64,000 bases of DNA from positions 175,321 through 239,320 of the forward strand of contig CAZLEV010000005.1 of the NCBI GenBank assembly GCA_964558645.1, given 5' to 3'. The position numbers and the translations under genes are program-made. Within the stretch, counting starts at the first letter, position 1. Each line of letters opens with the position of its first letter. Below the pieces are notes generated by a model. It was not told the DNA's origin, ran no database searches, and was given only the letters and a program-made list of their open reading frames with translations. This document shows, piece after piece, positions 35,937-63,822 of this stretch. The DNA comes from an uncultured archaeon. Lineage in GTDB: Archaea > Asgardarchaeota > Thorarchaeia > Thorarchaeales > Thorarchaeaceae.

Positions 35937-38327
35937 TTGCGAAAGAAGCAACTGATTCCCGTCTTTGCGTTTGTGATAATAGCCATCATCGTGGCACCTA
36001 TCGAAGCTCCATCTGTCAGATACAACATGCCAATCAAGGTGACAGATGCCGCGGCAGAAGTATACTCTGGAAAAGTCTTGTTTGACGAAGCGCACACGGC
36101 AAATGCAAGCGCCCTGTGGACGCCAGGGAATGCCTCACTCTTCGGATGGATGCTGACCCAGAATGGCTACAACACTTCAATGAACCTTGAACACGAGATC
36201 ACATCGGGTATGCTCGGCGCTTATGATGTGTTCGTTCTCTTCTTTCCCATGGTATCATTGACTAGCAGTGAAGTCTCTGCACTTACCTCCTTCGTTAGCA
36301 ACGGAGGCGGACTTCTCCTTGTGGGAATACAGCAAGAGGCCAACTGGGGATATGATTCATCAAGACTGAACCCGATCTCTGAAGAGTATGGGGTCACCTT
36401 CAACAATGACGTCATTGGGGGAAGCACTGACAGTCTAGAAACTCACCAGATAACCACTGATGTGACCCAGATAGCTCTAGAAGATGATGCATTTGGAAGC
36501 TGCTCGATTAATGTAGCAGCACCTGCAGAGAGCATCGTAAGCAAGGATGGCTCTGATATCGTAGCCTATGCTACATCCGGCAGTGGACGTGTGGTTATGG
36601 TCAGTTCAACAGCACCATTCCTATCTTACAGACGAGAGGCGCGTGGCTTTGGGCAGGATCATTTTCAGTTCTCGCTGAATGTCATAGACTGGCTTGCTGG
36701 GAACTCCCAGCGAGAAGCGCAGGTCCCGGAGATTGCTGAGATCACTGTCGGAAGTGGACCGAGCCTGAGTCCAGCTGAACTAGATGAGTACAGCACCTTT
36801 GTCGGTCTGTACCATGATCACACAACCCATAGCGATGGACAGGATACTGTTGAGAAGATGGTTGAGACTGGTATCTCACGGGGTCTTGATTTCATGATCC
36901 TCACAGAACATTCTCACAACACACCAGTCACGATAGGTGGCATCACTGGGGCTCTGGCGGCAAGGGACCTTGTTGAGAGATATGGACTGGATATCAACCA
37001 GTATATTGGAGCCGAGTTGTCAACTGTCAGACATACTGTCGGGTTTCCGCTCACAGAGAACATTTTCACCGCTGACCAGCAAGAGGCAGTAGATGAGATA
37101 CATGCACAGGGAGGGATTGCAGTTCTCTGTCATCCAACCATAGGGTTCACATACGCTGATGTATACGAGTCGCTAGACGATCTCGGATATGACGCTTATG
37201 AGGTTAACAATGGGGGTTGGATGTATGGCTCAGGAGAAGGCGGCCTAGTTCATAACTTCATTGGCGCAAGTGACGGACATCGCGCATCTTTTGTGGGAAA
37301 GGTACTCAACGCGGTGTTTGTCAAGAATCCGTCTGGACCTAACGGGGAGATGACAGGACAAGATCTGGCTGACGCCGTACTTGACAGGAGAATCGTGATT
37401 CTGGACCGCATCAACGATCTGGTCTACGGTGAGAAGGTCTGGGTCGACCGATTCATGGAGATGCTGGATGAAGCGGAAGATATCATTGAAGACGCCGAAC
37501 TAGTCATTGAAAACGAACAAGCACTGGGCAGTGATGTTTCACTGTCCGAGATGTACTTGGACTTGGCAAAGAATGCGCTCGAATACTGGAACCCAAGTCG
37601 TGCCATTCGTCTTGCGGCCAACGCGACCTCTGCAACCGCACTGGCCATCAATATCGAACTCGTCACCCCAAGAGTGGTCGACCCCAATGCGAACTTCGAC
37701 ATCGTCCTCGATGTGGAGAACAACAACGAGTTCCCCATATCTATGAATAGCACGGTCTATCAGAGGGGGTCGGTGACTGTTGACACACTGAATGCTGTCA
37801 TAGACATTGCAGCAGGGGATGCTGTAGCCACCACCAGAATCGGCACAGCGTCTTCTCAGGGACTTCTCGCATTCTGGGTTGTCATTCCGAGCTTCAACAC
37901 AAGCCAGTCGTTAGCACCACTCTTGATTCCATGGACTGCAGCAATCGATAATGTAACAGCACTACCCGTAGAAGGCGGTTCGGGCTATTCTGCTGATGTG
38001 CGCTGGCATATGGATTCGTCCTCAAGGAAACTGGTATCTGCAGTGCGAATTGCTTACGATGATGGCGAAACAGCCGAAGAGGTGAATATGAACCCAGCTT
38101 GGAATTGGTATGAGTTTCGCCTTGGGCCTTACTCTACGACAACAAACGTCACTGTCACCATAACTGTCATTGATACTGATGGAATGGAGTATGGGCTCTC
38201 AACACGCGTCATAACAGTCGGACCCACAGTCGCACCAGCACCCGATATCACCCTCATCATTGCAGGCATCGGAGTAATAGCCGTAGTTGCAGTTGTCATC
38301 CTGTTCGTGAAACGGAAACAAACATAG
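35937..38327 (+). CDS. Surface-anchored multidomain protein: DUF4350-like domain, PHP phosphoesterase, Ig-like domains, TM anchor
   Basis: LFDEAH; PHP motifs HDHTTHSDG, TEH, CHP, GASDGH; C-terminal TM helix followed by KRK. Confidence 0.8.
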   Translation: MRKKQLIPVFAFVIIAIIVAPIEAPSVRYNMPIKVTDAAAEVYSGKVLFDEAHTANASALWTPGNASLFGWMLTQNGYNTSMNLEHEITSGMLGAYDVFVLFFPMVSLTSSEVSALTSFVSNGGGLLLVGIQQEANWGYDSSRLNPISEEYGVTFNNDVIGGSTDSLETHQITTDVTQIALEDDAFGSCSINVAAPAESIVSKDGSDIVAYATSGSGRVVMVSSTAPFLSYRREARGFGQDHFQFSLNVIDWLAGNSQREAQVPEIAEITVGSGPSLSPAELDEYSTFVGLYHDHTTHSDGQDTVEKMVETGISRGLDFMILTEHSHNTPVTIGGITGALAARDLVERYGLDINQYIGAELSTVRHTVGFPLTENIFTADQQEAVDEIHAQGGIAVLCHPTIGFTYADVYESLDDLGYDAYEVNNGGWMYGSGEGGLVHNFIGASDGHRASFVGKVLNAVFVKNPSGPNGEMTGQDLADAVLDRRIVILDRINDLVYGEKVWVDRFMEMLDEAEDIIEDAELVIENEQALGSDVSLSEMYLDLAKNALEYWNPSRAIRLAANATSATALAINIELVTPRVVDPNANFDIVLDVENNNEFPISMNSTVYQRGSVTVDTLNAVIDIAAGDAVATTRIGTASSQGLLAFWVVIPSFNTSQSLAPLLIPWTAAIDNVTALPVEGGSGYSADVRWHMDSSSRKLVSAVRIAYDDGETAEEVNMNPAWNWYEFRLGPYSTTTNVTVTITVIDTDGMEYGLSTRVITVGPTVAPAPDITLIIAGIGVIAVVAVVILFVKRKQT

Positions 38328-51037: not shown

Positions 51038-51658
51038 ATGTGCCGCATCCTTCATGCCAGGGGAACCCCGACACTGGAGAGGGTAATGATGGAAGCGGTC
51101 TGCGACCTGATTGGTACAGCTAAGGCTCCCACAGATAGGCAGGTGAGACAGCTTGCAGACCGGGAGGACAAGCCAACGGACTTCCCGCGGTGTGCTGAAC
51201 GTCATGCCCTTAGGGACCCTGCAAACCCGGCACTGATGAGCAAGAATCTTCTACTGAACCGCACAGGGGGCACAGGTCTGGAAGGTAGGTATCGAGTCAT
51301 ATTCGGTGAGAACCTGAAAAACTACCAGCCGCCCAGAGGGTATGGCACTCATTCATGGAGATTGTCGAGCAATCTCTGGTCCAAGGTGCTGGACACCATT
51401 CGGTACACGCGACAGACCCTTGGCCACCGCTACGGTGGGATCTGGACGATGAGCCCAGCGCGGATCTCTCAGACCTGCCACCAGTGTGGAGAACGAGGAG
51501 TCCGGGTGGAGCATGACAGTTCCACGAGGGAGAGAAGGGGTGGGGAGTATTTCTACTGTGGGAGGTGTGAGGAGCACTTCCATGCCGATGTGAATGCGGC
51601 ACGAAACATCATTCACGTTCAAGATTGCCAGTCCAGTGCCGTTGCTGGACGGACATGA
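51038..51658 (+). pseudogene. tnpB: TnpB (RNA-guided RuvC nuclease) C-terminal remnant
   Basis: GENLK (RuvC II), SQTCHQCG...FYCGRC Zn-ribbon, HADVNAARNI (RuvC III). The N-terminal part, including RuvC I, is not recognisable. Confidence 0.8.
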
Positions 51659-59409: not shown

Positions 59410-61623
59410 CTAAGTTCTCCGATATACGTAGCGACTCCATGAACTGAGATTTGGCATTTCTTCGGGCATTCCCTTGCGTTTACGAATCTCAAGTATCTTC
59501 TCTTCTTGGAGATTCGAGGGAACCGGCTCGAATCCACGGAACTCATATCCAAAGAAACTTCGGCCAGCAGTGGCACTTCTGAACTCGTCAGCAATGCCTA
59601 TTGTTTCTGCAGTGGGCAAGATGCCCTTTATGGCCACAGCCTCTTCTTCACCCTCAATGGTGATGACCTGACCTCTGTGCGAGGTAAGCACCTTGATGAC
59701 TTGACCCTGAGTTTCGGTAGGGGTCTTGATGTCCACATTCAGGATTGGCTCAAAGAGACCAGGGATTCCGGTGAGGAAACCCATGTTCAGTCCCGAACTA
59801 GTCATTGTGGCAACTTCATTGTATCCAGTATGAGCAGGATCTGTGTGGACCGTAGCATCGGTCAGTGTCACTTTCACACCCATAACCGGTTCATGGGCAA
59901 TCGGGCCAGCATCAACGAACTCCCGAAATGTTGTCTGGAGATATGAAAAGATTCTGTCGAATCGCTGGACGCCACTCATCGCGTCCACAAGCATGCAGGA
60001 CTCGTAGATATCCAGAATCTTACGTGCCTCTTTCGCGTCCCAGCCAGCCTCATCTCTGAGAATCTGTGCCCGATCTCTTGACGGTTGATCAGCGTAGATC
60101 GTCTTCTTCTTGATGAGATCTACTGTCTTTTCATCGAGGGGCTCCAGATACATCTTGAGGCGGTTATGACCGTTCGGAGACTTGGTATGGAACTCATCAC
60201 CTCGCTCAGTCATCTTCTCACGATAGACAATGATGGGCTCAGATACCGAGATCGGTACCTGTTCATTGATCCGTTTCGTCAGAATCTCTATCTGCAACGG
60301 GTCTATGCCGTCCAAGCGATACTCGCCAGACTCCTTGTCGTGAACAAACCGCGCTGTGGGGTCTGCCATAATCCATTTTGAAACAACTTCGCCGAGTTTG
60401 GCTATGTCTTGAGGATCTTTGGGCTTGATGCTTCTGCTTACCACCGGCTCGCTGACGTATTCGATTGCCTCAAAACCGTGCAGCTCTGAGTTTGGACCCA
60501 CAAAGGTCTCGCCTGAGGGGCACATGAATCCGAAGATCGAGAACAGATTACCTGCTGGAACCTCATCCATGTCTAGGATATCCGTAATCTCTTGGACACC
60601 TAATCGCCGCACACGGGCATTCTGTCTCATGTTGACAAGCCGTATCTCCTGTCCAGACTTCAGTGTCCCTGAGAAGACTCTTCCGATGAGAGTAGGACGC
60701 TTGCTCTTCGGATCCACGAATATTTTCGTAATCATCCCGAGAAGTGGTCCATCAGGATCGCAGTTGCGCAGTGAGTGTCCCTCTGGGCTCTCAGGATCAC
60801 CCTTCCATATCCTTGGAATCTTGTACTGCTGAGCTGTCTTCGGATCGGGAAGGTGTTTCACAATCATCTCAAGAAGAGCATCGTCAAGAGGCAGGTTCTC
60901 TCTCAGCCACTTCTCATCACCCTCGTTGTACTTCTCGAAGACAACAATGGGCTTGATTCCCTTCTTCTCAAGAGTCTTCATCGTAAAGGCCCAGCCAGTC
61001 TTGGCACTACCAATAGCAACGCTGCCCTGTTCGAAGCTGACCCGCCAGTCCTTTGCATACTCATCTGGTGCAACCTTCTTGATGAGTTCGTTCACTTTCG
61101 CGATGATGATGTCAATTCGCTCGTAGACCTTTTGGGGTGGCAGCTTGAGCTCGTTGATGAGCCTATCTACCTTGTTGACGAAAAGAACGGGCTTGCATGC
61201 CTCACCACCGACAGCAAGGCGGATGTTTGTCTCCGTTTGGGTCATGACTCCTTCAAGAGCATCTACAAGAATGACCGCCCCATCGCTGGCACGCAGTGCA
61301 CGTGAAACCTCACCTGTGAATGAAAGATGCCCGGGGGTATCTGACAGCTGCACAAGATACTCTTCTCCATCGATTTCGAAGTTAAGCAGTACGACTGAAG
61401 TGAAGATTGTGATACCTCGTTCCTGTTCTTCTTCGTCGCTGTCGGTCATCAAAGCCTGTCCGGCGGCGGCATCACTCATCAAACCCGCTCGGCGCATGAG
61501 ATAGTCAGTGGTAGTTGTCTTACCATGGTCAATATGAGCGCTGATGGATATGATTCGCTTGTGCGCGTAATCGTCTGATTTGATGAGCCGTTTTATTGCG
61601 TCTGGCTCCTTGATCTTTACCAA
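59410..61623 (-). CDS. Elongation factor 2 homolog (probable Asgard aEF-2p paralog)
   Basis: AHIDHGKTT, ERGITI, DTPGH, NKVD, KSPNGHNR, IRKRKG. The diphthamide loop reads HTDPAHTGYNE rather than HxDxxHRG, and domain III GELH is replaced by DPLQ. Not in an S12/S7 operon. Confidence 0.9.
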   Translation of the reverse strand: MVKIKEPDAIKRLIKSDDYAHKRIISISAHIDHGKTTTTDYLMRRAGLMSDAAAGQALMTDSDEEEQERGITIFTSVVLLNFEIDGEEYLVQLSDTPGHLSFTGEVSRALRASDGAVILVDALEGVMTQTETNIRLAVGGEACKPVLFVNKVDRLINELKLPPQKVYERIDIIIAKVNELIKKVAPDEYAKDWRVSFEQGSVAIGSAKTGWAFTMKTLEKKGIKPIVVFEKYNEGDEKWLRENLPLDDALLEMIVKHLPDPKTAQQYKIPRIWKGDPESPEGHSLRNCDPDGPLLGMITKIFVDPKSKRPTLIGRVFSGTLKSGQEIRLVNMRQNARVRRLGVQEITDILDMDEVPAGNLFSIFGFMCPSGETFVGPNSELHGFEAIEYVSEPVVSRSIKPKDPQDIAKLGEVVSKWIMADPTARFVHDKESGEYRLDGIDPLQIEILTKRINEQVPISVSEPIIVYREKMTERGDEFHTKSPNGHNRLKMYLEPLDEKTVDLIKKKTIYADQPSRDRAQILRDEAGWDAKEARKILDIYESCMLVDAMSGVQRFDRIFSYLQTTFREFVDAGPIAHEPVMGVKVTLTDATVHTDPAHTGYNEVATMTSSGLNMGFLTGIPGLFEPILNVDIKTPTETQGQVIKVLTSHRGQVITIEGEEEAVAIKGILPTAETIGIADEFRSATAGRSFFGYEFRGFEPVPSNLQEEKILEIRKRKGMPEEMPNLSSWSRYVYRRT

Positions 61624-61907
61624 TTATTTCACCCTACTTGTGGCATTCTGTCCCCAACTCAAGAGATGAACACGAGAGAACTCGGTCAGGGACACCGATA
61701 ATACTCATCGGTGGTTTGGGCGAAAGCCAAATTCGATGCATAAAAGATTATCGTCACGGCATCGGACATGGTATCTCTAAATGGCTGCAAACAACCTAGT
61801 GAAGCTTGGACATCAATCGGATAACAGTTTGAGAGAACTGACAGGACCACCTATCGCTCAGCACAATGACTCAAGAGAAATGCAAACATGCTCTTTTTCT
61901 AGGTAAA

Positions 61908-61939
61908 GTGTCAGATAAGAGTGTCAGAAATGTGTCAGA
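61908..61939 (+). repeat. Three tandem GTGTCAGA repeats, with a fourth copy at 62425-62432
   Basis: Copies at 61908, 61921 and 61932, about 45 bp upstream of a TATA box. Confidence 0.7.
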
Positions 61940-61979
61940 TTTTTGCTTGTTTTCCCCTGAAGAGACCATACCGGGAGGA

Positions 61980-61988
61980 GATTATATA
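61980..61988 (+). promoter_or_regulatory. Archaeal TATA box for the putative ncRNA
   Basis: Purine-rich GGAGGAG followed by ATTATATA, about 25 bp before a GC-rich structured region. Confidence 0.5.
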
Positions 61989-62010
61989 CCACCGTCACGA
62001 CTAGCATACT

Positions 62011-62434
62011 GGACTAGGCAAGTGGGCCAGTGCTGTAGCACGGAGCTCGCGGCCGAAGGCCCGAGGGAAGTCTCAGACTTCTCGACGGAAGTCCATACTC
62101 CTCCCCAAAGGGATCGCATCAGCTCCCGGAGAGTCCGCGGCTGTTCACCTTGCTCAATCGAGCCTTGCTGCCTTCGGTGACGGAGCCACCAAGGGTGATC
62201 ATGAACCCGCCGTGGTAAAAACTGTGGAAAGCCTCACTGTGGCTGAGGGTGATGCCTCAGGACCTGCACAGGAGGAGGAAGCCAGGACCGTGGGAGGGAT
62301 TCCATCCCGATGAGCACGGACAAAGCCCCTGCTGCCTCAGCGTCCTCTGGGACTGCTGGGGGCGGTGACGCTGGCAGGGGACGGGTGGAACACAGAAGTT
62401 TCCGACACCTTGAGTTCACTCAATGTGTCAGAAA
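62011..62434 (+). ncRNA. Putative ~400-nt structured RNA (RNase P- or SRP-like, unresolved)
   Basis: GC-rich with no credible ORF; upstream TATA; 5' GGACTAGG can pair with CCTTGAGTTC near 62408-62417; many hairpins. Confidence 0.5.
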
Positions 62435-62570
62435 TGGTTTATCAAGAATGAGGTCAACGTGATATGGCAGAAACCTCTCAGAGTCAGTCAATTGCCATTC
62501 CATGGGCCTACGACACTCTCTGTCCGACAATGTACGACTTACAACGAACGGTCTCACCGGGGGAGTATGC

Positions 62571-63365
62571 TTACTTGGTTGCAACCACAACCATTCGCTC
62601 ACAGTTTGCCGAATAGGGTGTTCGCGGAAGCTTGTTCTGGCCCCAGAATTCAACCTTCGAATACCCCACGTCATCTAGGAGATCGCGAATCTCCAGAGCA
62701 GTGTACATTCGAATATCATTGTTGGACATGGCATCCTCATCCATCAATACTATCCTGTCATTTCCTGTATCGATGAAGGTTGCAGGCCGTCCTCGAAGAA
62801 CTCCGCTGGGAGCATCCAGAACATGAGGCTCTGTGATAAGGTACCCATTCTCCATTTTGGTCCAGCTTCTATGAGATTTGGGAAGGTTGTAAGGATTCAA
62901 CAGGTCCAGCAAGATCCGTCCCTTCTTAGCAAGCGACCTGTACGAGTTATCAAGTACACCTTTGTTCTCCTCTTGGTTGAAGAAGCCAAAACTGTGACTC
63001 AGAAGTACCGCCCCTTTGAATCTCTGATCGAAGTCCATCTCCCTCATGTCTCCACGATAGAACTGGACATCCACCTTCTCTCGCTTCGCCTTCTCTTTCG
63101 CAAACTCGATGAGGGTCTCGGATATGTCAAACCCTGTGACCTTAAGCCCCCGCTTAGAGAAGAGAATCGAATGATCTCCTGCCCCACATGCAATATCGAG
63201 TATCTCGTCACCCTTCTTCAGATTCAGGGTCTGAATACAGAATTCCACAACCATCTCATCGTAATGCCTGATTCCGGGAATTGAGCTTCGATGCTTGATC
63301 CTAAAGACCTCGGCCCAGAAATCATCCCAGCCCAGTTCAACCTGTTCCATCGCAGTTACATCCAT
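62571..63365 (-). CDS. Class I SAM-dependent methyltransferase
   Basis: ILDIACGAGDH, VTGFDIS, GDMR, SFGFF. Confidence 0.9.
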   Translation of the reverse strand: MDVTAMEQVELGWDDFWAEVFRIKHRSSIPGIRHYDEMVVEFCIQTLNLKKGDEILDIACGAGDHSILFSKRGLKVTGFDISETLIEFAKEKAKREKVDVQFYRGDMREMDFDQRFKGAVLLSHSFGFFNQEENKGVLDNSYRSLAKKGRILLDLLNPYNLPKSHRSWTKMENGYLITEPHVLDAPSGVLRGRPATFIDTGNDRIVLMDEDAMSNNDIRMYTALEIRDLLDDVGYSKVEFWGQNKLPRTPYSANCERMVVVATK

Positions 63366-63746
63366 GAGAAACGAGCTGGCGCGGAATATGAACATTGCCA
63401 TATTGATGCGGATGTGAGTCTTTCAAAAGCAATAGATGTAATCAAGTGGAGAGGACCCGTACCCTGTCTTTTCTTGATTACTCTCCGCCGGGAGGGACGC
63501 AGACTCAAGCAACAGGAAAACTCCATCAAGTTACCATGATGATACGGGTCTTACGTCTCCATATTTATAACGGGATGATTTCCCTATAAATCTACGGGTT
63601 GAAGCCTAAAGACTATAACTCTTCTTTTTTTCGGCATATATGACTAATAGTAGAAGAGGGCCTGAAGGGGCGCATAACGGACAGCAATTTGGTAGGGAGT
63701 CATAGACGCAAAAAGAGAAGAGAAAAGACCATGAATATATGGAGAA

Positions 63747-63822
63747 TGGTAGCCCCGCCAGGATTTGAACCTAGGTCCGGGGGGCCAGAACCCCCGATGC
63801 TGGACCACTACACCACGGGGCT
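63747..63822 (-). tRNA. tRNA-Gln(CTG), intronless, CCA encoded
   Basis: AGCCCCG...CGGGGCT-A-CCA acceptor with A1-U72, anticodon loop TTCTGGC, T-loop GTTCAAATC. Confidence 0.97.

Follow-up and report, generated by a model that had tools for sequence, protein, structure and literature searches.

Among diverged Cas1 proteins, aCas1 reportedly comes from Makarova et al. 2020. Transposons of Asgard archaea that join aCas1 to TnpB (Cas1H-Asgard-1/-2) were predicted by Altae-Tran et al. 2023, who described a T, a hypervariable stretch and a GTTCACTCA motif downstream of the aCas1-associated TnpBs, and proposed the hypervariable stretch before that motif as a possible guide (PMC10691335). Gene-less omegaRNA elements have been described for IS200/IS605 as stand-alone omegaRNAs or PATEs (PMC10691335; Meers et al., PMC10055086), and Fanzor ghost loci are ~550-nt gene-less copies that retain ends and omegaRNA (Saito et al. 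2023, PMC10432273).

Here we describe a related locus in a 64,000-nt stretch of an uncultured Thorarchaeaceae genome (the stretch is called the window, its genome G000). The locus is very probably a non-autonomous miniature of a Thorarchaeia aCas1-TnpB transposon, which has kept the ends and the omegaRNA scaffold, has lost both genes and carries a TATA box before the scaffold. As in the Asgard aCas1-TnpB loci, the host is an Asgard archaeon, TnpB stands beside a diverged Cas1, and a T, a hypervariable stretch and GTTCACTCA are present downstream of tnpB. The copy described here departs from the published loci as a derivative that has no genes but has a TATA box of its own, and the present analysis adds defined ends, empty sites and a duplicated target of 6 bp. 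It resembles IS200/IS605 PATEs in being non-autonomous, in keeping the ends and omegaRNA, and in its expected cooperation with TnpB in trans, but differs in its scaffold of ~430 nt, in its duplicated target hexamer (IS200/IS605 is without target duplication) and in that no Y1 transposase (Y1_Tnp) was found in G000, an assembly that is 93% complete. Gene-less copies with ends and omegaRNA, and a partner nuclease with a rearranged RuvC-II, also recall the Fanzor ghost loci; here, however, the elements are archaeal, have no 30-nt terminal inverted repeats, carry a much longer scaffold and have a Cas1-type candidate transposase. With casposons they share a candidate integrase of the Cas1 fold, duplication of the target and some tRNA-adjacent insertions, whereas the ORF lists of full elements lack PolB, clear long terminal inverted repeats are absent, TnpB is present, and the Cas1 has no N-terminal beta domain in its model and is fused in a protein of 1400-1860 aa.

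A recent 571-bp insertion between two host genes

The RNA-bearing tract (62011-62441) is intergenic, lying between a gene for EF-2 of a paralogue type (59410-61623) and a SAM methyltransferase gene (62571-63401), both on the minus strand and both host genes outside the element. The EF-2 is of the stand-alone kind, with HTG in place of HRG in its diphthamide loop, and a tRNA gene (Rfam 52.9 bits) is found on the minus strand at 63750-63822. The insertion itself measures 571 bp and, read on the plus strand, has TCAAGA at both ends, at 61871-61876 on the left and at 62442-62447 on the right, where conservation among copies ends. Its left end (61877-61940) contains three direct TGTCAGA repeats (at 61909, 61922 and 61933), which are probably transposase-binding sites, and one TGTCAGA repeat lies near the right end. 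An archaeal TATA box (61981-61988, plus strand) stands ~30 nt 5' of the RNA start and is, from its sequence, a putative omegaRNA promoter. By analogy with TnpB systems, the host flank at 62448-62467 on the same strand is the predicted guide segment if transcription passes the right end.

In G001, a genome of the same genus, exactly 571 bp are absent at this site and a single, diverged hexamer is present. Two further filled and empty pairs again show two hexamers versus one, giving three empty-site cases in all; for three further copies whose empty sites were sought, no orthologous flank was found. Among the 14 elements of G000 with both ends, the hexamers are identical in 8, differ by one base in 4 and are degenerate in 2, and the hexamer sequence, including its central dinucleotide, differs between copies. 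TCNNGA directly follows the right end in 21 of 32 copies (background rate 0.7% per position), and beyond six bases past these 32 right ends the sequence is random from position 7, a 6-bp motif being all that the insertion sites of miniatures have in common. The element in the window inserted recently, at a hexamer of the TCWWGA type that ends up duplicated; the insertion data fit both a 5-6 bp duplication and a shared core.

A DNA search returned up to 15-17 matches per genome, in 17 of 24 genomes of the same family and in 0 of 16 more distant ones, the range beyond the family resting on a single-sequence search. The named relatives are Thorarchaeota. G000 holds ~10 long gene-less copies, some of them truncated or split at contig ends. 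Six further copies of ~180 bp are reduced to their ends and the last hairpin, one minimal copy measures 75 bp, and two right ends occur on their own. Since about six 180-bp copies without most of the RNA have also spread, the RNA is dispensable for mobility. One such 180-bp derivative (L001; G000:C6:184836-185008) is located just 3' of the true SRP RNA gene, a position at which it is absent in G001 and G002. At G000:C2:271922-272260, a miniature is cut after ~180 nt of RNA and is followed by a motif resembling the tail of a 730-aa TnpB family, possibly as a nested insertion or an inter-family recombination. Near-identical duplicated segments occur on contigs C9 and C11 of G000, in keeping with its 6% contamination estimate.

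A covarying RNA scaffold with a subterminal hairpin

An earlier note, made from the letters of the window, had proposed a structured RNA gene at this place, which was taken for either a strongly diverged SRP or RNase P RNA or a new class. It did not include that the tract is multicopy, that it lies inside a mobile element starting at 61871, or that it contains a vestigial 100-codon TnpB tail. The TATA box on which it drew is present (61982-61988), the tract is GC-rich as described (60-63% versus ~49%), and every motif quoted was located at or near its given position.

Single-sequence folding of the tract is modest (z -1.57). In an alignment of 38 homologues, 54 of 97 pairs show a compensatory change and 95.9% of the cells are paired; 0 of 500 shuffles matched this and slid controls gave 40-45%, figures that are not a p-value because the structure was derived from the same alignment and kin are not independent. 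The scaffold (62011-62441, plus strand) is multi-branched and ~430 nt long, with a long-range helix joining 62222-62226 to 62391-62395. Of the helices drawn earlier, the hairpins at 62066-62082, 62233-62274 and 62326-62380 are supported by the homologue alignment, and the 3' terminal hairpin at 62399-62434 is likewise supported. Two pairings had to be redrawn: the 5' end pairs with 62090-62094 instead of with the 3' end, and 62097-62103 pairs with 62128-62134, replacing the proposed 62098/62271 helix.

The subterminal hairpin (62399-62434, plus strand) bears in its loop the GTTCACTCA motif (62414-62422), which comes after a hypervariable stretch as in the Asgard aCas1-TnpB loci, and its 3' arm includes the right-end TGTCAGA repeat. 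As this hairpin aligns poorly, it was assessed by an arm swap, in which cognate arms gave -10.7 and swapped arms -7.7 kcal/mol (0/10000 permutations). The hypervariable stretch looks structural and not a guide, because it is paired with the arm behind the GTTCACTCA motif; it behaves like the 5' arm of a subterminal hairpin, a feature that typifies omegaRNAs. Known omegaRNAs range from 79 to 466 nt and are recognised by a subterminal hairpin within ~10 nt of the end (PMC10278001), and the hairpin described here ends 7 nt before the right junction.

A covariance-model search of the tract against Rfam gave no match at E<=5, including to RF01857 (archaeal SRP) and RF00373 (archaeal RNase P), and the sole Rfam match in six homologous loci was a tRNA. 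Together with the covariation, this absence of a match supports the earlier view of a conserved structured RNA outside the Rfam families, while none of the identities proposed for it is supported. The canonical genes of G000 score above the Rfam cut-off elsewhere in the genome (SRP RNA at C6:184495-184807, 102.5 bits; RNase P RNA at C4:209083-209421, 153.9 bits), and with both RNAs encoded on other contigs the housekeeping role has no vacancy. BLAST detected no similarity of the tract to either of them. The tract is multicopy, against the single copy expected of archaeal RNase P RNA, and the motifs read as 'SRP helix 8' and 'RNase P' vary among copies. Nor is a new class supported, the RNA being the same one that overlaps tnpB 3' ends, that is, a transposon omegaRNA scaffold.

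Origin from the 3' end of tnpB

In 25+ loci of G000 and its relatives, this RNA is found directly behind the TnpB zinc finger, overlapping the last 100 codons of the gene. It thereby occupies the tnpB 3' end and reaches the transposon right end, the arrangement of TnpB omegaRNAs. With its strongly covarying structure and this overlap, the RNA is in all likelihood a scaffold of the omegaRNA kind, ~430 nt long, and we regard the identity of the tract as an omegaRNA miniature as highly probable. The window copy still contains a vestigial frame (62011-62313, plus strand) comprising the last 100 tnpB codons and the stop, without a start codon, with 68% identity to TnpB residues 459-557 (E 2e-33). 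A peptide from this frame is unlikely, because no start codon follows the in-frame stop at 62002-62004 and many copies are frame-broken (about half of the gene-less ones).

The TnpB proteins are identified by Pfam Cas12f1-like_TNB and by fold matches to Cas12f/TnpB (E 1e-16), and residues D241, G344, E402 and D436 are invariant in 14 of 14. The RuvC-II glutamate is changed to glycine, and an invariant alternative glutamate is found before the zinc finger; this rearranged arrangement is active in TvTnpB and Fanzors (PMC10530073), and a rearranged active type is also described in PMC10691335. No TnpB relative was found on viral contigs. A derivation of the TATA box from the tnpB coding region was considered and rejected as not significant (264/2000 shuffles).

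Other tnpB-related units occur in these genomes. The window contains, at ~51446-51610 on the plus strand (G000:C5:226766-226930), a fragment of a second TnpB family of ~730 aa, whose members end ~16 codons past the zinc finger; their repeats are TGTCCAA, their right end is short and of another kind, and giant Cas1-domain genes adjoin them too. Two tandem tnpB-like genes are present in G001 (L136:9145-13162). Upstream of tnpB, at G000:C26 ~37350-37440 and in L048, L049, L076 and L077, a conserved unit lies between tnpB and the giant gene, and consists of a TATA box, a 40-nt hairpin, a short palindrome and a further TATA box, from which tnpB would be transcribed as a leaderless mRNA. The 3' arm of the 40-nt hairpin is complementary to the omegaRNA terminal loop, and the unit is possibly a small regulatory RNA or an operator.

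Full-length elements and a giant Cas1-domain protein

Of 20 loci examined, 16 have tnpB arranged head-to-head, in changing host contexts, with a gene for a protein of 1400-1860 aa. Searches of this giant protein against Pfam and the ESM Atlas returned nothing, and a sequence-profile comparison of its N-terminus with CRISPR Cas1 was not significant; it was the fold search alone that gave its Cas1 identity. In that search, the first 240 residues adopt the Cas1 catalytic-domain fold, with the top 12 structural matches all being Cas1 or casposase, the best of them at Z 13.2 (rmsd 3.4, 179 residues aligned) and the next unrelated one at Z 6.6. Residues E104, H170 and D180 are invariant, and a PD-(D/E)XK-like motif was recognised by eye after the Cas1-fold domain. 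By this fold match, tnpB is linked to a diverged Cas1, as in the Asgard aCas1-TnpB transposons.

Locus L138 is a complete element, with giant gene, tnpB and RNA, and with TCAGGA on both sides. Its left and right ends are the same as those of the miniatures of its genome, and the left ends of L139 and L152 are similar; in all three, the left-end type seen in the window is located behind the giant aCas1 gene. In G013 and G005, a miniature and a full element share both ends. Full elements that have ends of this kind carry genes for TnpB and the giant Cas1-domain protein, and their ORF lists contain only these two genes and sometimes one of 224-247 aa. The element ends have only short imperfect symmetry. 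For the window subfamily, only the right end and the RNA were matched to tnpB loci, and a search of G000 for a full element with this left end found none. This genome has six open giant-protein frames, and a window-type left end was found directly behind the giant gene in 0 of 6, in an assembly that is 93% complete and has several loci broken at contig ends; therefore no specific mobiliser is assigned to the window copy. The Pfam-detectable Cas1 of G000 belongs to an ordinary CRISPR-Cas locus (G000:C4:103000-117000), where a CRISPR array is accompanied by cas1-cas2-cas4 and type I-D-like effector genes.

One subfamily of full elements lies against tRNA-Gly(TCC), in L043, L080, L082, L144 and at G000:C2:426000-432950. 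On the far side of these elements lie a partial, degenerate copy of the tRNA and the remnant of a right end. This arrangement suggests repeated insertion at that tRNA. In L152, a tRNA-like fragment is duplicated at both ends.

Possible roles of the miniature RNA

We propose that the Cas1-domain protein would mobilise the miniature in trans: it would bind the TGTMAGA repeats of the ends, excise or copy those ends and integrate them at TCWWGA. The inserted miniature would then be transcribed, yielding the scaffold together with ~20 nt of the right flank as a host-derived guide, and TnpB encoded at another locus would take up this RNA and cut vacant alleles, the repair of which would restore the element, as modelled on IS200/IS605 (PMC10055086). 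A duplicated hexamer serving as TAM would make the filled right junction a self-target, and therefore the TAM or the guide start would differ from the simplest model. Active use of the miniature RNA in trans is the outcome towards which we lean.

An origin from the same transposons would also be compatible with a silent RNA in the gene-less copies, each being a MITE-like remnant whose scaffold has not decayed. Shorter derivatives without the RNA have proliferated too, several copies are truncated or show decay of the TATA box, and in the window's clade the selection signal is weak, with 15 of 28 variant pairs kept (54%, versus 37% neutral), which gives only a faint indication of selection on structure after gene loss. 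Set against this, the tree has gene-less copies beside tnpB-bearing relatives in a pattern that needs at least four label changes on strongly supported branches, which means that they arose three times or more. Each of these origins has kept the whole scaffold with a common 5' start, preceded by an AT-rich box (positions -28 to -34; present in 20 of 21 gene-less copies), and 95.6% of the cells are paired in gene-less copies versus 96.0% in tnpB-linked ones, despite decay of the reading frame. We consider a silent passenger unlikely, if well short of negligible. That the gene-less copies would be selected, transcribed guide cassettes, each Cas1-catalysed insertion providing a new guide for a shared TnpB and building a dispersed guide library, is a more daring proposal and a distinctly doubtful one.

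The RNA might, beyond a post-excision nuclease role, guide or scaffold the aCas1 transposition machine in the recognition of targets or ends. The joint occurrence of TnpB and the giant Cas1 protein across genera, the repeated position of some subfamilies beside tRNA-Gly and the placement of the RNA at the large end of known omegaRNAs would agree with such a role, which is nevertheless improbable given that miniature sites have only the 6-bp motif in common, that derivatives without the RNA still move and that the TnpB catalytic residues are intact, unlike those of Cas12k-type guides. Mobility through a serine or tyrosine recombinase acting at a short shared core, with the hexamer as crossover core and not as target duplication, is highly improbable. 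The asymmetric ends with their short direct repeats do recall IS607, either model would accommodate palindromic hexamers at the two junctions, and G000 encodes one tyrosine integrase as well as a fragment of an IS607 TnpA; but the fragment is broken and its end repeats are different, the central dinucleotide of the hexamer varies among copies, and no recombinase gene is found inside any full element examined. Y1, serine and tyrosine recombinases of G000 were considered as partners, and none fits. The housekeeping reading, whether as a highly diverged SRP or RNase P RNA or as an Alu-like repeat derived from SRP RNA, can be set aside in spite of a superficial 5' likeness to archaeal SRP RNA, as the lack of Rfam and BLAST matches, the canonical genes elsewhere, the unconserved motifs and the different topology of the covarying structure all speak against it, and homology to the TnpB tail, an origin that accounts for the tract sequence, rules it out.

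Implications for Thorarchaeia

As a miniature of an aCas1-TnpB transposon, the element brings several new features: the 6-bp TCWWGA duplication, the secondary structure of the omegaRNA, at least three gene-less origins, and evidence for the hypervariable 'guide' as a hairpin arm. A literature search of incomplete coverage found no paper on these miniatures, their target or their RNA structure. Caution is called for in the annotation of Thorarchaeia genomes, where copies of this sort can pass for housekeeping RNAs.

Asgard aCas1-TnpB elements, known so far by prediction, unite in one transposon both ancestral parts of type V CRISPR, the Cas1 integrase and the TnpB nuclease. The miniatures supply minimal ends, a target motif, empty sites and a ~430-nt omegaRNA outside Rfam, and with these the means to test both enzymes. 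If the gene-less copies did serve as selected guide cassettes, they would form a functional intermediate between transposon and CRISPR-Cas12, in which the RNA may possibly also steer integration.
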